From an uncultured delta proteobacterium (lineage in GTDB: Bacteria > Desulfobacterota > Desulfobacteria > Desulfobacterales > SG8-13), in NCBI GenBank assembly GCA_963719015.1, contig CAVRBA010000024.1, positions 8,791 to 72,790 on the forward strand: a DNA stretch of 64,000 nucleotides, given 5' to 3'. The position numbers and the translations under genes are program-made. Within the stretch, counting starts at the first letter, position 1, and each line of letters starts with the position of its first letter. Of this stretch, positions 14,221 to 24,489 are shown in pieces. The notes beneath the pieces are model-generated. The model was given only the letters and a program-made list of their open reading frames with translations, was not told the origin of the DNA and did not search any database.

Positions 14221-15756
14221 TCAGACCGGTACCCGTTTTCGATCAAGACTGCGGTACTGAACCGCTTCGGAAACATGTTCCGAGGAAAGGGCCTCAATTC
14301 CGGCAAGATCGGCGATGGTGCGGGCAATTTTCAGAATCCGGTTGTAAGCTCTTGCAGATAGTCCAAGTTTGTCGATGACGGTTTCCAGTAGTCGTCGCGA
14401 ACTGTCGTCGACACCGCAGAACCGCTTCAGTTGGCGGCTACCCATCTGGGCGTTGGCATAAATTTTAGAGCGATGGAACCGATCGGACTGAACGGCTCGA
14501 GCCTTGTTGACGCGGGTTCTGATGTCCGCCGATGATTCAGCGCTGTTTTGCGCTGCCAGATCTTTGTATGGCACAGCCGGAACCTCCACATGAAGATCAA
14601 TACGGTCGAGCAAGGGGCCTGAAATCTTGGAACGGTATCGATGAATCTGTTGATAGGTGCAACGACACTGGTGCTTTGTATCGGTTAAGTACCCGCAAGG
14701 GCAGGGATTCATGGCAGCAACGAGCATCAATCGCGAGGGGTAGGTGATGGTCAGGGCCGCACGGGAAATGGTGACGCTTAAATCCTCAAGCGGCTGGCGC
14801 AAGACCTCCAGCACATGCTTTTTGAATTCAGGCAGCTCGTCCAGAAACAGAACGCCGTTGTGGGCCAGACTGACCTCTCCCGGTCTCGGTATGTGGCCGC
14901 CACCGATCAATCCTGCATCTGAAATCGTGTGGTGGGGCGAGCGGAACGGACGCTGAGTGATCAGGGTCTGGTTGCGAGCCAGCAGACCCACCACACTGAA
15001 AATTTTGGTTGTTTCAATTGCCTCCTCGAAGGTGAGTGGTGGCAGGATTGTCGCTAATCGCTTCGCAAGCATTGTTTTACCGGAGCCGGGAGGGCCGATC
15101 ATCAACAAGTTGTGCCCACCTGCGGCAGCAATTTCCAAAGCACGCTTAACATGCGCCTGCCCCATGACCTCACTGAAATCCAAATCCGGCCGCCGGTCGT
15201 GGTTGAAGAGCTTGTCCAGATTGGCCTTGAGTGGTGAAATACGGACCGCACCACGCAAGTACTCTACCAGTTCCGCGAGCGTTCTTACTGGAATGGCATC
15301 AATTCCGCTGACTACCGATGCCTCATGCCCGTTTCCAAATGGTACGACAATACCGGTATAACCGGCTCCCTTTGCCGCCAATGCCATGGGAAGAGATCCA
15401 TTGACCGGTTTGATTCGTCCGTCCAGGGAGAGTTCACCCAGCACAAGATGTTCGGTTAGTGATTCTTTGGGCACAACACCGGTGGCGGTGAGTATTCCGA
15501 GAGCGATAGGAAGGTCAAAGCCCGTGCCCTCTTTTTTTATATTTGCGGGTGCCAAATTAACGGTGATGCGATCATCGGGAAAAGCGTAGCCGGAATTATT
15601 TATGGCCGCCTTTACCCGTTCCTTGCTTTCCTTTACCGATGCTTCCGGCAGCCCGACAATGGTAAAAGTGGGCAACCCGCGGGCAATGTCCACTTCGACT
15701 TCGACCAAATAGCCGTCGATTCCGATCACGGCGCTGCTCAGAATTTTGGCCAGCAC
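14221..15756 (-). CDS. comM: YifB/ComM family Mg-chelatase-like AAA+ ATPase
   Basis: 511 aa. [24 protein letters not shown]-terminus, Walker [12 protein letters not shown] and [11 protein letters not shown]. Full-length family resemblance. Confidence 0.92.
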
Positions 15757-16125
15757 ATTGCCTCCAACGGATAGGAATTCGATGCCAAAAACTAAATCTT
15801 TTTAACTATTCGGGCCACAGTAAATAGCAATTTTACACGCTTGAATAACGTTTGATAAATGTCTGACAGCATGTCTATTTCAAAACCTGCAGCGAAACAT
15901 TATATAACAAGTCAGGTTATTAACCAGAAATCGCTTAGCACACCAAGCAAACTCAATCAATGGATATCATCGGTTGTTCGCTTTGTGGGACTGGTATCGA
16001 TCTGCGCAATGGATATCGCCGCTGCAATATCACCCATCGTGTAACAGCTGCTGAATGGCTGGCGTCCAGGCAATATCGAAAGAAAAGAATGCTACAACAA
16101 TGAAATTCAGGGTAGTTGCCGTTAC

Positions 16126-17268
16126 CTATAGATATGATCGCATCATCTGCTTCACCCCAGCAGCCTCAGCCACCGTTAACAATGTGCACATGCCGCTTTT
16201 TTCCTGATCCGACTGGGCATCTACCCACTCGGTCAATTTCTGCAGCGCCCGGCCGCTACCGATAATTTCTTTGCTCATTGCTACACCTGTAGCAATATCT
16301 TCGGCCTTGCCCACCAGGTAAAGGACCGCCCCGGCGTTGAGACAAGTAATATCTATGCACCCATTGTGGCCTATTCCGCCGATAACTTTAAGGAAACGAA
16401 CGGCCTCTTTGCGCACGTCGCCAGTGGCGGCTATATCCCCGTATGCGGAGCGCTTCAATCCGACGTCTTCGGGGGCGATCGTGTGCGATACGTCACTCCC
16501 GTCCGCACGGATTTCCAGCACGACGCTTTCCCCAATGTTGGACAACTCGTCCATACCTTTGTCATTTTCGGCGTCAAATCCGTGTACGACCATCGCACGC
16601 TCGATTCCGATGGCTTTCATGATTTTCGCCACTTTCGGTACCATTTCAACTGAATAAACACCGCGCAGCGCATGGGTTGTTTGGCAGGGGCTTGCCAAAG
16701 AGGCGGCAATATTCAAGGTAGACCCAAACCGGATTTGACTGAGAATCCGGGCCAGGGACTGGGGGTGAACCAGAGCGCTCATACCGTTAAACAGCCCGAT
16801 ACCGGCCGTCTTGATGCTGCGCCCCACGGTATCCACGTCGCATTCCACGTTGATACCAATCGATTCGAGCAGATCAACGGTTCCGCAGCTTGATGTCAAC
16901 GCTCTCGCCCCATGGCGGGCCATACGGGTTCCAGCAGCCGCGGCAACAATCGCAGCCGCCGAACTGACATTGAATGTTTTCAGCTGATCCATGCCGGTAC
17001 CCGAATTTTCAACCAGCGGTTTCCCAAGGTCCTCTGTGACCGTCTCGGTGTCCAGTTCAAGGATGGCCTGCCATGCACCGGCAATTTCCGCAGGACTTTC
17101 CCCTTTGGCCGTCAGGGCGGCCAGAAAAGCACCCTGCTGCAAATCCGGTTGCTGGTTTTGCAGAACTTGGCGGAACATTTCCTGGCTTTCCTCACGCGTC
17201 AAATCTTTTTTATCAATCAATTTCTGGATATTCGATCCAAACGACTTTAATAGTTCATCCGTCCACAT
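16126..17268 (-). CDS. TrpD-family (glycosyl transferase family 3) phosphoribosyltransferase paralogue, non-canonical motifs
   Basis: 380 aa. TrpD-like N-terminal helical domain (DLTREESQEMFRQVL...GAFLAALTAKGESPAEIAG) and alpha/beta core. It has GTGMD instead of GTGGD and HGAR instead of HGNR. No other trp genes are nearby. It is the second gene behind the cobalamin riboswitch. Confidence 0.75.
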   Translation of the reverse strand: MWTDELLKSFGSNIQKLIDKKDLTREESQEMFRQVLQNQQPDLQQGAFLAALTAKGESPAEIAGAWQAILELDTETVTEDLGKPLVENSGTGMDQLKTFNVSSAAAIVAAAAGTRMARHGARALTSSCGTVDLLESIGINVECDVDTVGRSIKTAGIGLFNGMSALVHPQSLARILSQIRFGSTLNIAASLASPCQTTHALRGVYSVEMVPKVAKIMKAIGIERAMVVHGFDAENDKGMDELSNIGESVVLEIRADGSDVSHTIAPEDVGLKRSAYGDIAATGDVRKEAVRFLKVIGGIGHNGCIDITCLNAGAVLYLVGKAEDIATGVAMSKEIIGSGRALQKLTEWVDAQSDQEKSGMCTLLTVAEAAGVKQMMRSYL

Positions 17269-17284: not shown

Positions 17285-18259
17285 CTATGGGTAGAGTAAT
17301 ATTTTCATTCCTTGCCGGGACGCGACAAGATCCAGTGCCCGGGTGAGATCGGTAAGCGGCAAACGATGTGAAATCATGTCACTCACGCCAACCTTGCCGC
17401 TCGAAATTAGACCGAGCGCTTCCTCGCCGTGACGGAAGCTGCAGCCGTATGCGCCGACAACGGTTTGCTCCATATAGTGAATATGATTCAGATCAAGGGA
17501 CAAAAAACAGTCATCGGGGGGAAGACCGGAAAAAATCACCAACCGCCCCCGGGGATTCAAGTGGGTTTTGGCTTCATTGTAGGCTGTCAGGTTTCCGACT
17601 GCGACCACACAGATATCGAATCGCAGATCCTCCGGGCAAACGGCGTATCCATCGATCAGGCGCCGACGGCGTTCATCGGTTTCGATGCATGTCGGCTTTG
17701 CCCCCATGGCCTCGGAAGCTCTGGCGAGAAGAGTTCCAGCCGGTCCCCCCCCCCATATTCCAACCTGTTTACCACTAGCGACTTCAGCCAGTTCCAGTGC
17801 ATTTAAACAGCATGACAACGGTTCGGCAAACACGGCATGTTCCGGCGACAGGCCCTGCGATACCTTGATGACACTTTGTGCGGGTACTGTCACAAAATCA
17901 GCAAACCCGCCATCACGATGAAATCCCATAATCTTCATATCACGGCAAAGATTCTCCGCCCCCGCGGCACATGCCGGACATGTTCCACACCAGATTCCAG
18001 GATAGACGTATACGCGATCACCTTCTGAGACGTTGACAACCTGCGCCCCTTTTCGCTGGATGACCCCAACAACCTCCTCACCCGGAATACGCGGCAGCAC
18101 CAGGTCCCGGTGTCCCGATCGAATAATCTTGAGGTCAGTGCGGCACATGCCGGTCACCTCAACCTGCACGAGGACCTCATCCTCCCGCGGTTCTTTAACA
18201 GGAAGTTCTTGTACCTGGAAACCACCGACTTCGGTTACCATAATGCATTTCATATTCAA
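17285..18259 (-). CDS. MDR-superfamily zinc alcohol-dehydrogenase-like protein (threonine/sorbitol DH-like), atypical catalytic site
   Basis: 324 aa. GGAGGTG SD, GMCRTD, structural Zn site CGTCPACAAGAENLC, Rossmann GGGPAG. The usual GHE is PGEE here. It is the first gene behind the cobalamin riboswitch. Confidence 0.8.
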   Translation of the reverse strand: MNMKCIMVTEVGGFQVQELPVKEPREDEVLVQVEVTGMCRTDLKIIRSGHRDLVLPRIPGEEVVGVIQRKGAQVVNVSEGDRVYVYPGIWCGTCPACAAGAENLCRDMKIMGFHRDGGFADFVTVPAQSVIKVSQGLSPEHAVFAEPLSCCLNALELAEVASGKQVGIWGGGPAGTLLARASEAMGAKPTCIETDERRRRLIDGYAVCPEDLRFDICVVAVGNLTAYNEAKTHLNPRGRLVIFSGLPPDDCFLSLDLNHIHYMEQTVVGAYGCSFRHGEEALGLISSGKVGVSDMISHRLPLTDLTRALDLVASRQGMKILLYP

Positions 18260-18344: not shown

Positions 18345-18610
18345 CTGAAACAAACAATAAAGGGTTCCGGCAACCGCGATTGCGGTCAGCGGAACCCTTT
18401 GCCATCGGATATCCGATTGATCCGTATCCGTCGTCTTCTGGCTTCCCCGTATCCATCGCGACCTTCCCATGTCGATGCATCGACACAGTGGTTCCGTGCG
18501 ATCGAAAATTACCTGAATTGCGGGGTCACAGCGGCGGGACCGCCACGGATTTACACCGTGTTCCGTTACGGATGGGACCGACCCATTTTTCCGAACCAGT
18601 ATCAGATTAG
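18345..18610 (-). promoter_or_regulatory. Cobalamin (B12) riboswitch with intrinsic-terminator expression platform
   Basis: The minus strand reads ...ATGGGTCGGTCCCAT CCGTAACGGAACAC GGTGTAAATCC GTGGCGGTCCCGCCGCTGTGACCCC ... CCACTG-TGTCGATGCATCGACA-TGGGAAGG ... GGGGAAGCCAGAAGAC. This covers the core junction, the GCCACUG...GGGAAGG element and the B12 box. It is followed by the hairpin AAAGGGTTCCG/CGGAACCCTTT plus ATTGTTTGTTT at 18400-18345. The boundaries are approximate. Confidence 0.87.
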
Positions 18611-20107: not shown

Positions 20108-20680
20108 ATGGCTTCGGTAAACCCCATTAAAACAGGTGTCGTCTGTTTAGGACTAATGTTCTCGCTATTGTGTGGAAGCAACCCGTTGCTGGCACAGGAC
20201 GCCGTGTTGACCCACATTACCGTTTCCAACACCCGTGATGATCTTCTGCTCAATTTAAATCTCGAGGGCAGCTTTACAGAAAGACTCAAAGCCGCCATCA
20301 TCAGCGGTGTTCCGGCAACATTCACATTTTATATCAACCTCTACCGAATCCGCAGCTGGTTGCCCGACAAAAAAATTACCAATATCACCCTCACACACAC
20401 CATCAAATATGACAATCTAAAGAAAGACTTTACGATCAAACGTTCATGGCGAGAAGGAGACCCGATGGTTACCCATTCTTTCTCACAAGCACAAAAGTGG
20501 ATGACCGAAATCGATGCCCTGCCGGTATATCCACTGAAAGAACTTGAAAAGGGCCGCCAGTACCAAATTCGGGCAAAGGCCGAGGTCAGCAAACTGACCC
20601 TGCCTTTATATCTTCACTACATACTCTTTTCCTTATGGGACGTCGAAACGGATTGGTATACGATCGATTTTATTTATTAG
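20108..20680 (+). CDS. DUF4390 domain protein (periplasmic, signal peptide)
   Basis: 190 aa. Signal-like N-terminus, and LTHITVSNTRDDLLLNLNLEGSFTERLKAAIISGVPATFTFYINLYR resembles DUF4390. It lies immediately upstream of an NtrY-like kinase, as is common. Confidence 0.7.
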   Translation: MASVNPIKTGVVCLGLMFSLLCGSNPLLAQDAVLTHITVSNTRDDLLLNLNLEGSFTERLKAAIISGVPATFTFYINLYRIRSWLPDKKITNITLTHTIKYDNLKKDFTIKRSWREGDPMVTHSFSQAQKWMTEIDALPVYPLKELEKGRQYQIRAKAEVSKLTLPLYLHYILFSLWDVETDWYTIDFIY

Positions 20681-20795
20681 TCACGGATTCCGCCCGCTAT
20701 ACCGCCGCCAAATCTTCAACTGTCCATGGTGACAACCAAAGGCATTGCCTTCAGTAAAGAAATAGCGGCGTCACCTTTCATTATCCCTATTTCCC

Positions 20796-23033
20796 ATGAA
20801 TGAAACCAGGGCAAATAAGAGCATATCGCTGACACCGAATCAGGCCGACAAAAAAAGGCGCAAACGTGAGGCCATTCTCATTGTCGTCATATTTGTCGTT
20901 GTTGCGTTTCTGACCCTTGCGGAATTTCGGGTCATTAATTTCGGTACAGACATCCCTGTCTCCAACACCATTCTGATGTTTATTCTCATCAACATCAATT
21001 TGCTGTTGTTGATCTTGTTGATTTTCCTGGTTTTTCGCAACCTGGTCAAACTGCTTTACGAGCGCAAACGTAAGGTTATGGGTGCCAAGCTTCGAACGCG
21101 TCTCACGGTTGCGTTCATTGCGCTTACTCTTCTTCCGACGATTGTCTTGTTTTTCTTCTCGATAAACTTCATCACCACCAGTCTCGACTTCTGGTTTAAC
21201 GTTCCGGTGGAACAGGCGCTGGAGAATTCTCTCGTCGTGGGGCGTAGCGTATATCGGCAGGTCGAGACCAACAGCCAGTTCTTCCTCGAAAGAGCATCCT
21301 ACCAGATCGTTAAAAAGGAATTTCTACATCCCAAAAATTCCACCGCACTTTCGCGCTATATCCGGGTTGTTCAGCGTGAATTCAATATTGCTGCAATCGA
21401 AGTGTACGATCTTAAAGCCAATCGGTTGACCTTTTCCCTTTCCGAAGAACTTGAAAATACGGTTTTTGGAATCGTCCCTTCCCACGTACTTCTTGAAAAC
21501 GAAATTCCCAAAAGTGTCTGGACGCATTCAGAGTACGTCACTAAAGGAGAGCTGATTCGGACTGTGGGAACAATTCCCTTCGGAGCCGACCCCGACCAGA
21601 TCGAAGGTTACCTTATCATTTCGATTCTTCTGGTGCCCGACATCTCCCAGAGCATGAAGTCGATAACCAGAGGGTTTGAAGAGTACCAGCAAATCAAGTT
21701 ACTGAAAAAACCGATTCAAAATACGTACTACATCGTTTTGTCGATCGTGGCCTTGCTGGTTCTGTTCTGCGCTATCTGGTTAGGCTTTTATCTCGCCCGC
21801 TCAATGAGCATACCCATCAAAGAGTTGGCAGAAGGCACCCGGCGTGTGGCCGAAGGTGAACTGAGTTTCACCATTGAACGCGTCGCCGACGACGAAATCG
21901 GCAGTCTGGTCGATTCATTTAATAAAATGACCCGGGATTTGCGTGGCAGCCGTGAGCAACTGGAGCTTTCAGCTGCCAAGCTTCAGCAACAAAATGCCGA
22001 AATAGAAGAAAAACGGCAATATATGGAAATCGTCCTGAAAAATGTCTCCGCTGGTGTCATTACACTCGATGCCGGCGGAATCATCAAGACAATCAATCGG
22101 TCCGCTGAAAGAATGCTCGGAATCAAAACCGACGAGGTTCTCAATCGCGGTTATGATCACCTATTGGACGGCCAGTTCCGATGGTTGGCCAACGAGATTA
22201 TGGACAGCCTCACTCTCTCGAAAAACGATGCTTTCCAACTGCCACTACGGCTGATCATCGACGGCCGGCCGCGCAGTTTTATGACCCATGTCAATGCGCT
22301 CAGGGATGATACCGGCAATCACATCGGTATCGTGATGGTGTTCGATGACCTGACCGAGATGGAAAGAGCCCAACGGATGGTCGCATGGCGGGAGGTGGCC
22401 CGGAGAATTGCACACGAAGTTAAAAATCCCCTCACTCCGATCACGCTTTCCGCCCAACGATTGAAACGAAAATTTGCAAAGGATCACGAGGATCCCGTCT
22501 TCGATGAATGCATCCGGATGATCATTGATCACGTTGAACTTATTCGTAATCTAGTCAACGAGTTTTCAGCGTTTGCCAAATTCCCGAGCGTTGATCTGAA
22601 GCCTTGCGAACTGCTGCCTATAATCGAGGAGACCGTGGCGCTTTACATGGAAGGTTATACTGAAATCGTTTTCCAGACGCAACTGGCCGATACTGTCCCG
22701 GTGATGAACCTTGATCGCAAACAGATCAAACAGGCCATGATCAACCTGCTGGAAAATGCCATTGCCGCCATAAGGGGTAAAGGTGATATCACGATCACCT
22801 TGTCATACGATTCAATTTTAAATCGTGTCCGGATCGAAATCGCCGATAATGGGCCCGGTGTTTCGGATGCCGACAAAACCCGCCTGTTCGAACCCAATTT
22901 TTCTACCAAAAAGGCCGGAATGGGTCTGGGCCTAACGATCGTCAGTACGATCGTCGGCGACCACAATGGTGTGATCAGCGTCCAAAACAATCAGCCTACC
23001 GGGGCGAAATTTGTGATCGAGCTGCCGGTATAG
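20796..23033 (+). CDS. Sensor histidine kinase, NtrY-like (TM-HAMP-PAS-HisKA-HATPase)
   Basis: 745 aa. N-terminal TM helices, HAMP, PAS, H-box IAHEVKNPLTPI, then N/G boxes (NLLENAI, DNGPGV, GMGLGLTIV). Confidence 0.85.
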   Translation: MNETRANKSISLTPNQADKKRRKREAILIVVIFVVVAFLTLAEFRVINFGTDIPVSNTILMFILININLLLLILLIFLVFRNLVKLLYERKRKVMGAKLRTRLTVAFIALTLLPTIVLFFFSINFITTSLDFWFNVPVEQALENSLVVGRSVYRQVETNSQFFLERASYQIVKKEFLHPKNSTALSRYIRVVQREFNIAAIEVYDLKANRLTFSLSEELENTVFGIVPSHVLLENEIPKSVWTHSEYVTKGELIRTVGTIPFGADPDQIEGYLIISILLVPDISQSMKSITRGFEEYQQIKLLKKPIQNTYYIVLSIVALLVLFCAIWLGFYLARSMSIPIKELAEGTRRVAEGELSFTIERVADDEIGSLVDSFNKMTRDLRGSREQLELSAAKLQQQNAEIEEKRQYMEIVLKNVSAGVITLDAGGIIKTINRSAERMLGIKTDEVLNRGYDHLLDGQFRWLANEIMDSLTLSKNDAFQLPLRLIIDGRPRSFMTHVNALRDDTGNHIGIVMVFDDLTEMERAQRMVAWREVARRIAHEVKNPLTPITLSAQRLKRKFAKDHEDPVFDECIRMIIDHVELIRNLVNEFSAFAKFPSVDLKPCELLPIIEETVALYMEGYTEIVFQTQLADTVPVMNLDRKQIKQAMINLLENAIAAIRGKGDITITLSYDSILNRVRIEIADNGPGVSDADKTRLFEPNFSTKKAGMGLGLTIVSTIVGDHNGVISVQNNQPTGAKFVIELPV

Positions 23034-23130
23034 CCAGCTGTCCGGAATTATTACCTTATGTTGTGGTGACAAAGGGTGTTCCGGTAGCCATGATATTTGA
23101 CACCCACAAAATCAACAAGGAGTTCGGGCA

Positions 23131-24489
23131 ATGAATCCCACAATATTGATCGTTGATGATGAACCGTCTATTCTCCAATCTCTCGGGGGACTGTTGACTG
23201 ACGAAGGGTTCGAAGTCCATACCGCATCCAATGGATACGAAGCCCTGAAAAATATCGCAAGCGATTCACCGGACCTGGTGTTGCTCGATATCTGGATGCC
23301 GGGCCTAGACGGTATCGACACATTGCAGGAAATCCGGAAAAATAACCCTTACATACAAGTGATCATTATCACAGGCCACGGAACGATAGAAACCGCCGTG
23401 AAGGCAACCAAAATGGGTGCGTATGACCTGATCGAAAAGCCGCTGTCCATCGACAAGGTTATCGTTGCCATCAACAACGCTTTGAATTTTCGCCGGCTCG
23501 AAGAAGAAAACCGCTACCTGCGGAAAAAGATGATCGAAAAAAATTCCATCAGCGGTAACAGTCCCCCGATACAGCTGCTTAAAAAACAGATCGCCGTAGC
23601 CGCACCAACCGACACGTGGATATTGATAAAGGGCGAGAACGGTACCGGCAAGGAACTCGTGGCCCGGACAATTCATCAGCTCAGCCGCCGGGCTTCCCAG
23701 CCCCTGATAACCGTCAATTGTGCAGCTATTCCTGAAGAACTGATCGAGAGTGAACTCTTCGGGCATGAAAAAGGCGCGTTCCCCGGGGCATCCATGAAGA
23801 AAAGGGGTAAATTTGAACTGGCACACAGTGGAACTATTTTTCTGGATGAAATCGGTGATATGAGCTTGCGGACACAGTCAAAAATGATGCGCGTTCTGGA
23901 AGAGCAAAAGTTCAACCGTCTCGGAGGCAGTCGAACCATCACTGTGGATGTCCGTGTCATTGCCGCCACCAACAAAGATCTGGAAAAAGAAATCGAAAGC
24001 GGTCAATTCCGAGAAGAATTGTACTACCGCTTGAACGTGGTGCCGATAGAGGTTCCGGCGCTTCGCGAACGAATGGAAGACATTCCGGTCTTAGTCGATA
24101 TTTTTTTCGAAGAATTTGCCAAGCAAACACAAAAAGATAAAAAAAAGATAACACCGGCCGCTGTTGAGCAATTGCGCCAATCAGTCTGGCCGGGCAATGT
24201 TCGAGAACTCAAGAATCTTGTGGAACGTCTGGTCATAATGGTTGAGAAAGATATCATCGATATGGCGGAACTTCCCGATGCATACAGTCCCGACATCAGA
24301 CCGGATTTATCGGCCGATGAGTCCGGTCTGCTTTCAATCGACACCCTCAAAGAAGCAAAACAGGAATTTGAAAAAGAATATATCCAAAAAAAGCTTAAAG
24401 AAAATAAGAATAACATCAGCCGGACCGCTGAAATGATTGGGGTCGGACGTAGCTACCTTTATAAAAAAATGAAGAAAATCATCAAATAA
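23131..24489 (+). CDS. NtrC/NtrX-family response regulator (REC-AAA+-Fis HTH), GAFPGA variant
   Basis: 452 aa. REC (ILIVDDEPSI...LLDIWMPGLDG), Walker A GENGTGKE, ESELFGHEKGAFPGA, and a C-terminal HTH ISRTAEMIGVGRSYLYKKM. Confidence 0.88.
   Translation: MNPTILIVDDEPSILQSLGGLLTDEGFEVHTASNGYEALKNIASDSPDLVLLDIWMPGLDGIDTLQEIRKNNPYIQVIIITGHGTIETAVKATKMGAYDLIEKPLSIDKVIVAINNALNFRRLEEENRYLRKKMIEKNSISGNSPPIQLLKKQIAVAAPTDTWILIKGENGTGKELVARTIHQLSRRASQPLITVNCAAIPEELIESELFGHEKGAFPGASMKKRGKFELAHSGTIFLDEIGDMSLRTQSKMMRVLEEQKFNRLGGSRTITVDVRVIAATNKDLEKEIESGQFREELYYRLNVVPIEVPALRERMEDIPVLVDIFFEEFAKQTQKDKKKITPAAVEQLRQSVWPGNVRELKNLVERLVIMVEKDIIDMAELPDAYSPDIRPDLSADESGLLSIDTLKEAKQEFEKEYIQKKLKENKNNISRTAEMIGVGRSYLYKKMKKIIK

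Follow-up and report, generated by a model that had tools for sequence, protein, structure and literature searches.

The DNA analysed here is a 64,000-nucleotide stretch of contig CAVRBA010000024.1 from an uncultured delta proteobacterium (referred to below as the window), and the gene in question is the open reading frame (ORF) at positions 16126–17268 of its minus strand. We conclude from its sequence that this ORF encodes a remodelled paralogue of TrpD and not an anthranilate phosphoribosyltransferase, and that with the dehydrogenase gene preceding it it forms a predicted two-gene operon that is repressed by B12-type cofactors via a cobalamin riboswitch. Comparison with related loci makes a function linked to cobamides or to CobT very probable. 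Our preferred reading, which we hold with moderate confidence, is that the two enzymes act together, under repression by B12, to supply the CobT step (lower-ligand activation) of cobamide assembly.

The reading frame is uninterrupted and encodes a TrpD-fold protein of 380 residues (P0001), the start codon of which is backed by full-length homologues (380–381 residues, 61–91% identity). Pfam places Glycos_trans_3N at residues 14–71 and Glycos_transf_3 at residues 83–342. Superposition of an AlphaFold model calculated from a 14-sequence family alignment (pLDDT 91, pTM 0.91) on experimental TrpD structures gives TM scores of 0.77–0.83 when normalized to the query length and 0.85–0.92 when normalized to the target length. 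The Pfam domains and the superposition agree with the TrpD two-domain layout proposed in the initial annotation, and the structure prediction that it had recommended confirms the fold. Against the TIGR01245 hidden Markov model (HMM) for TrpD the ORF scores 245 bits, above the cut-off of 199, and its relatives are labelled ‘anthranilate phosphoribosyltransferase’ in public annotation. A canonical trpD (422 bits against TIGR01245) is present elsewhere in the genome, on contig C41, with flanks that resemble trpG, trpE, trpC and trpF, as judged by eye only. Likewise, four other genomes from different phyla hold a canonical TrpD at 335–440 bits and a paralogue at 275–288 bits. The initial annotation had also observed that no trp genes accompany the ORF; indeed, tblastn searches of the window with TrpB, TrpE, TrpG and two other proteins of the trp operon gave no homologue, the trp operon being the one on C41, and the sole match to a TrpD query in the window was the ORF itself.

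A maximum-likelihood tree was calculated from 91 family rows and only five canonical TrpDs, with nucleoside/AMP-phosphorylase-like proteins of the NP-II type as outgroup. A branch with SH-aLRT support of 98 sets the 91 paralogues apart, and the five canonical TrpDs are grouped with a support of 96; the ORF was thus found outside bona fide TrpD when the phylogenetic and HMM comparison suggested in the initial annotation was carried out. Two other members of the fold family, which that annotation had left as candidates, were rejected. The TrpD2/YbiB model NF006005 gives 40 bits against a cut-off of 185 and covers the N-terminal two thirds only, while YbiB chains in the PDB are matched with E values of ∼ 1e-9 compared with 1e-48 for TrpD. 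The NP-II nucleoside and AMP phosphorylase models TIGR02644 and TIGR03327 give 47 bits against cut-offs of 409–535, over the N-terminal 150 residues only.

Three relatives deserve mention. In a metagenome-assembled genome (MAG) of Akkermansia muciniphila (G344; L110 / L096:7992–9053), which carries cbiF, the top TIGR01245 match is the paralogue (254 bits) and the same search found no canonical TrpD. A more distant sister form with 37% identity (L023:9394–11768) reads GTGSD, AKKGAQ and GPLTMP; it too lies downstream of a cobalamin riboswitch, and is accompanied by a longer (414-residue) dehydrogenase of the medium-chain dehydrogenase/reductase (MDR) superfamily that is closest to the IolM/Tdh models. 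A metagenome protein of 787 residues (P0243) joins a TrpD-like sequence with GTGMD and RHGAR to a Peptidase_C11 domain and is probably a gene-calling artefact.

The active site was compared by tallying residues in the 91 family members and five canonical TrpDs after alignment to solved TrpDs, with residue roles taken from the literature (PMC5537072). The signature motif of the TrpD family is the glycine-rich GTGGD, and in its KHGN motif the lysine serves anthranilate and HGN serves phosphoribosyl pyrophosphate (PRPP); the G of GTGGD and the N of KHGN are both present in 5/5 canonical TrpDs. In the ORF the glycine-rich PRPP loop reads GTGMD (residues 90–94; 16987–17001, minus strand), exactly where the initial annotation had located it, and Met93 is found in 89/91 family members. 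The second motif, at residues 118–122 (16903–16917, minus strand), reads RHGAR in place of KHGNR, which bears out the earlier observation of HGAR for HGNR; the asparagine is replaced by Ala in 83 of the 91 proteins and by Ser in the other 8. TrpD catalysis also depends on an essential arginine that binds anthranilate (Ss R164 / Mtb R193 / Tk R159; PMC5537072). HMMER alignment to TkTrpD (5noe) puts Leu176 (16741–16743, minus strand) at this position, which is Leu in 90/91 family members and Arg in 5/5 canonical TrpDs. Engineered variants of Mtb TrpD with the same two substitutions as the family, N138A and R193L, are in the PDB.

Other parts of the site are kept. The metal-binding ‘DE’ motif of TrpD (PMC5537072) is present as Asp240-Glu241 (16546–16551, minus strand) and is invariant in the family, as are G90, T91, G92, D94, N100 and S102; His119 is conserved in 90/91 members, and residue 103 is T or S. 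Further changes are family-wide: GSAD has become (T/A)VD, GPLTNP has become ASLA(S/N)P, a seven-residue insert precedes the DE motif, and R174 (91/91), R202 (89/91), N161, S164 and Q178 are newly conserved. This pattern carries the signature of an active site that has been rebuilt rather than degraded, which would make the protein a working enzyme that retains the donor chemistry and acts on another, perhaps still anionic, acceptor. That the reaction is a PRPP-dependent transfer to an acceptor other than anthranilate we consider probable, though far from certain. The initial annotation had likewise argued for a paralogue with a non-anthranilate substrate, and this is now supported by the separate clade, the loss of the Asn and the Arg, the coexisting canonical trpD and the B12-controlled operon.

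The operon begins with a cobalamin riboswitch aptamer (RF00174) at 18413–18610 on the minus strand, which cmscan identified over the full model (positions 1–189) at 67.1 bits (gathering threshold 31.5, E = 2e-14). It is followed by an expression platform at 18347–18400 (minus strand), in which RNA folding and reading of the sequence place an 18-bp G+C-rich hairpin (18359–18400) and then a U-rich tract. The segment 18330–18430 on the same strand folds with −39.9 kcal mol−1 (z = −3.3), and none of 200 shuffled sequences was as stable; a simple terminator scan did not pick up the hairpin at 18359–18400, the stem of which is interrupted. The platform looks like an intrinsic terminator, that is, a predicted OFF switch upon corrinoid binding. 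The first cistron, at 17285–18259 (minus strand; start codon TTG at 18259 or ATG at 18253), encodes a Zn-dependent MDR dehydrogenase (Pfam ADH_N and ADH_zinc_N); the TrpD-like gene is the second and starts 16 nt past the dehydrogenase stop codon. A terminator-like hairpin found by pattern scan beyond the TrpD-like stop codon (15931–15950, minus strand) probably marks the operon end. The B12 riboswitch that the initial annotation had placed upstream of the TrpD-like gene is therefore real, but it precedes the dehydrogenase gene and not the TrpD-like gene directly. Only one other RF00174 element occurs in the genome, in front of btuC-btuD-btuF-like-cbiL. This second unit lies on contig C22 (L120:1533–6781) and encodes BtuC, a corrinoid ABC ATPase, a BtuF-like protein, CbiL and a 351-residue ORF product with no family match.

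The dehydrogenase, which the initial annotation had not covered, has 324 residues and belongs to the Tdh/polyol-dehydrogenase subfamily. Its top NCBIfam matches are models of L-threonine 3-dehydrogenase, at 141 bits against cut-offs of 380–458, and its nearest solved structure is 4ej6, titled ‘putative zinc-binding dehydrogenase’. Conservation over 75 partner proteins extends to the catalytic Cys39, G(E/H)E at 61–62, Glu146, the four Cys residues of the structural Zn site, GxGxxG and, at position 193, an acidic residue of the NAD type; the His of GHE is replaced by Glu in 48 of the 75. The Arg- and Lys-rich block C-R-T-D-L-K ... G-H-R-D-L-x-L-P-R is specific to the family and would suit a substrate that is phosphorylated or anionic in some other way.

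When one genome per prokaryotic species was scanned, the TrpD-like family gave at least 567 matches, and those that are named come from over 12 bacterial and archaeal phyla; counts out of 80 loci rest on the best 80 of the at least 567 confirmed stretches. Bacterial hosts among these 80 are Desulfobacterota, Myxococcota, Spirochaetes, Thermoleophilia, Dehalococcoidales, Bacillota (including a Dehalobacter), Aquificota, Nitrospirota, Akkermansia, Lentisphaerae, Kiritimatiellia, Acidobacteriota and Omnitrophota, and the archaeal hosts are Methanomassiliicoccales, Methanotrichaceae, ANME-1 / Methanophagales and Methanomicrobiales. For one family member from Dehalococcoidales, the 120 best relatives carry only the names of uncultured Dehalococcoidia/Chloroflexi and of archaea. 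Many of the genomes are MAGs of uncertain completeness, and ORF calling in the loci was mechanical. The dehydrogenase gene is the immediate neighbour of the TrpD-like gene in 76/80 loci, mostly upstream of it and, in some archaea and Aquificota, downstream. A search for longer proteins found one natural dehydrogenase–TrpD-like fusion (protein cluster P0244). By conservation of gene order the dehydrogenase is the obligate partner of the TrpD-like enzyme. At one locus of a genome from the same order (G206; L018:9380–11099) the TrpD-like gene has neither a dehydrogenase gene nor a riboswitch, and a gene of the shikimate-kinase family precedes it.

The pair is immediately preceded by RF00174 in 7/11 loci of a sample from the organism's own phylum and, by Rfam search, in 15/21 further bacterial loci (22/32 bacterial loci in total); the same search found it at none of five archaeal loci. 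One pair that lacks a cobalamin riboswitch has a riboswitch for S-adenosylmethionine (SAM) just upstream on the opposite strand (L043:4183–4278). Within the phylum the pair is patchy, being present in 11 of 301 sampled genomes, and its transfer-prone spread resembles that of accessory lower-ligand genes.

The link to CobT comes from relatives. Two genomes encode a dehydrogenase–CobT fusion, in which the dehydrogenase occupies residues 2–330 and CobT residues 360–701. Locus L020 has the order riboswitch, dehydrogenase gene, TrpD-like gene, cobT, cobS, cobD, cbiB; L017 has the same order as far as cobS; and at L044 the pair again shares an operon with nucleotide-loop genes. In a Dehalococcoidales MAG (L095) btuFCD, cbiB and cobD precede the riboswitch and the pair, which are followed by cobT, cobS, cobC and, further on, cobU; btuFCD and cobU were assigned by ORF cluster only. 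At a Methanotrichaceae locus (L103) the gene next upstream of the pair encodes a CobT of the archaeal type (310 bits with TIGR00303, cut-off 240), and L102 has the same gene layout, with a putative CobT. Since bacterial and archaeal CobT both stand beside the pair, the comparison indicates that the pair is linked to CobT function and not to one CobT gene family. Bacterial CobT is present in 41/50 pair-bearing genomes; five that lack it were tested, and three of these have the archaeal type, one in frameshifted pieces. When ORFs of the 80 loci were clustered, the only recurring neighbours were cob and btu genes, each at 5 to 11 of the 80. Four of the 80 loci (L095:11700–12386, L087:10092–10793, L072:1808–2491 and L077:4905–5612) hold, in or beside cobamide loop operons with the pair, a PP-loop ATP pyrophosphatase gene of the Dph6-like / PAB0415 family, which may be another cobamide-related gene.

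The genome under study is, by its gene content, a de novo corrinoid producer, with cobQ, cbiG, cbiF, cbiD, cbiA and cobT together on contig C45; the pair is also carried by small Dehalococcoidales genomes in which cbiF was not detected. The occurrence of the pair in both kinds of host points to a role in the lower part of the molecule and not in ring synthesis. The organism's own cobT (C45:94133–95220; L119:10134–11221) is split into two frames of 224 and 136 residues by two single-base insertions within ∼ 10 nt, beside GGAC and GATC words, and the split more probably reflects an error in sequencing or assembly than a pseudogene. Despite the full anaerobic corrin pathway, no gene of the ThiC family (ThiC, BzaF/BzaAB) was found in this genome, which is 94.6% complete, and about 6/50 genomes of the wider pair-bearing set have ThiC-family paralogues. 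That the pair simply replaces the Bza route, by which benzimidazoles are made anaerobically, was considered and rejected: counted by eye, at least two ThiC-family copies occur in 3/11 pair-positive and ∼ 48/290 pair-negative genomes.

We therefore prefer a module that would supply the CobT step, and the following course of events can be proposed. The TrpD-like enzyme would bind PRPP-Mg and transfer the phosphoribosyl group to a nitrogen nucleophile other than anthranilate, the dehydrogenase would then oxidize or reduce the phosphorylated intermediate, and the product would be passed to CobT. We place the enzymes in this order because natural fusions link the dehydrogenase both with the TrpD-like enzyme and with CobT. 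The product may be a lower-ligand base or a precursor of one, built from ribose carbons as by BluB and BzaF; this part of the proposal is tentative and we would give it somewhat less than an even chance. In both known benzimidazole routes, BluB and BzaF, the ring carbons come from a ribose-derived (ribityl or ribosyl) unit. In the BluB/CobT2 fusion of Propionibacterium freudenreichii, to our knowledge the only precedent for a CobT fusion, BluB reportedly makes the base that CobT activates. A base or precursor is favoured because the fusion partner makes the base there, because BluB and BzaF use ribose-derived carbons and because the spread of the pair is patchy. More speculative still, and in our view rather doubtful, is a third lower-ligand route that would need neither oxygen nor radical-SAM chemistry, in which a base made from the ribose carbons of PRPP and a simple nitrogen nucleophile would be handed directly to CobT in a complex.

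Several points weigh against a module that feeds CobT. No cob genes lie near the pair in ∼ 80% of loci, and in the genome under study cobT does not adjoin it, so that the CobT link rests on relatives. The hosts probably use different lower ligands, which is awkward for one dedicated base, and the pair shows no anticorrelation with Bza-type ThiC. The invariance of R174 and R202 suggests that the acceptor may still be anionic, and the altered GTGMD, HGA and CGTVD could mean a changed donor and not a changed acceptor. An OFF riboswitch is also typical of B12-independent isozymes, and all functional statements on the pair are drawn from comparative genomics.

The riboswitch and the isolated loci would suit a B12-independent bypass. 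The pair would then replace a B12-dependent reaction under scarcity, as metE and nrdD do, and have no part in making cobamides; an OFF switch with a terminator is what such isozymes have, and the loci away from cob genes agree with it. We consider the bypass unlikely, since the dehydrogenase is known fused to CobT, the pair is embedded in cobT-cobS-cobC/cobD-cbiB operons, CobT genes of the bacterial and of the archaeal family are both linked to it, and no known B12-dependent reaction is circumvented by a PRPP transferase and an alcohol dehydrogenase.

Recycling of nicotinate has a comparably small chance. Here the TrpD-like enzyme would convert the nicotinate released by CobT, with PRPP, back into nicotinate mononucleotide (NaMN) and so maintain a high local level of NaMN, and the dehydrogenase, as a binder of pyridine nucleotides, would be an accessory or a scaffold. 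Such a function is tied to CobT itself and indifferent to the lower base, which suits the wide host range, and the new invariant arginines could hold a repositioned carboxylate. However, NadC, which makes NaMN de novo, is present in 5/5 pair-bearing genomes tested, which makes it improbable that the module exists to relieve a lack of NaMN. Recycling also leaves unexplained the real redox chemistry that is implied by the Zn sites conserved in the dehydrogenase, catalytic as well as structural, and the pyridine nitrogen is, as general knowledge, a poor nucleophile for TrpD-type chemistry.

We give no better prospects to a route that makes the alpha-ribotide without CobT, in which the TrpD-like enzyme would form the beta-N-ribotide of a lower base from PRPP and the dehydrogenase would invert C1′ via a transient 2′-keto intermediate, giving the alpha-ribotide for CobS. 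The kept PRPP/Mg motifs, the replacement of carboxylate-binding residues by Leu, Ala and Met and an Arg/Lys-rich dehydrogenase pocket that suits a phosphorylated ribotide are all consistent with this chemistry, for which two enzymes suffice. Yet nearly all pair-bearing genomes have CobT, which already does that job; the dehydrogenase–CobT fusion is hard to square with a route that competes with CobT; and an MDR 1′-epimerase is without precedent.

Remodelling is less probable again. Phosphorylases share the TrpD fold family, and the pair is found in apparent corrinoid salvagers beside btuFCD, cbiB and cobTSCU, which would suit a TrpD-like enzyme that cleaves the ribosidic bond of an alpha-ribotide or cobamide with phosphate or pyrophosphate and so releases or exchanges the lower base. 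The phosphorylase-family HMMs score 40–47 bits against cut-offs above 400, though, the stereochemistry of an alpha-glycoside mismatches (again as general knowledge) an enzyme built to turn alpha-PRPP into a beta-product, and the dehydrogenase is left unexplained. Finally, the function given by automatic annotation, a genuine second anthranilate phosphoribosyltransferase, is hardly credible: the TIGR01245 score, the database names of relatives and the one Akkermansia MAG that showed no other TrpD are outweighed by the family-wide loss of the essential Arg and the KHGN Asn, the separate clade, the canonical trpD in a trp operon of the same genome, control by B12 and not by Trp, and the lack of homologues of the other trp proteins tested in the window.

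The biosynthesis of cobamides is held to be essentially solved apart from some lower-ligand routes, and the pair is a concrete candidate for a missing step. The identity of the lower ligand decides which microbes can share a cobamide cofactor. If a third route to the lower ligand exists as sketched above, many anaerobes presumed to make purinyl-cobamides would produce a different, possibly unrecognized lower base. The naming of the two proteins as ‘anthranilate phosphoribosyltransferase’ and ‘threonine/alcohol dehydrogenase’ is a systematic annotation error that can now be corrected; it inflates predictions of tryptophan prototrophy, as in the Akkermansia MAG where the paralogue is the sole TrpD-like match. 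The family also illustrates how the TrpD scaffold can be put to new use, by remodelling of the acceptor site and conservation of the residues for PRPP and Mg. In full-text searches no account of the dehydrogenase/TrpD-like pair was found, nor any paper that places either family in a cobalamin regulon or in the cobamide pathway. Genome regions with cobalamin genes among them are drawn in a population-genomics paper on Chlorobium, and the figure shows ‘trpD’ and ‘DH’ without comment.

The genes flanking the operon in the window are unrelated to it. On one side lie yifB (14221–15756, the next minus-strand gene after the TrpD-like gene), an mscK-like channel gene and a heptosyltransferase-like gene, and on the other lpxC, a DUF4390 gene and a two-component pair. 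The DUF4390 gene, a HAMP/PAS histidine kinase gene and a gene for an NtrX/AtoC-like sigma-54 response regulator (20108–24489) form an apparently conserved three-gene unit adjoining lpxC.

Compared with TrpD (EC 2.4.2.18; PDB 9UCW, 5NOE, 1ZYK, 4X5B), the paralogue shares the two-domain fold, with ∼ 30% identity to the best matches, and the motifs G-T-G-x-D, N-x-S-T/S, the His-Gly of KHGN and the DE metal site. It differs in GTGMD, the exchange of the KHGN Asn for Ala and of the essential Arg for Leu, ASLA(S/N)P, the arginines R174 and R202 and the seven-residue insert; it also forms its own clade, is under B12 control and has a dehydrogenase as partner instead of trp genes. The dehydrogenase has the fold, the catalytic and structural Zn sites and the NAD-type Rossmann motif of the L-threonine 3-dehydrogenases and polyol(-phosphate) dehydrogenases of the MDR superfamily, but it falls far under the Tdh cut-offs, mostly has Glu for the His of GHE and carries its own C-R-T-D-L-K block. 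Like the known cobalamin-riboswitch regulon (cob/cbi/btu and bzaAB/F-cobT), the operon combines an RF00174 aptamer with a terminator for predicted repression by corrinoids. The closest parallel to the dehydrogenase–CobT fusions is BluB/CobT2, in which the partner is also N-terminal and CobT C-terminal. BluB, however, is an O2-dependent flavin destructase with a nitroreductase fold, whereas the dehydrogenase is a Zn-dependent MDR enzyme that would need the TrpD-like enzyme, and the hosts of the pair are mostly anaerobes or sediment MAGs.

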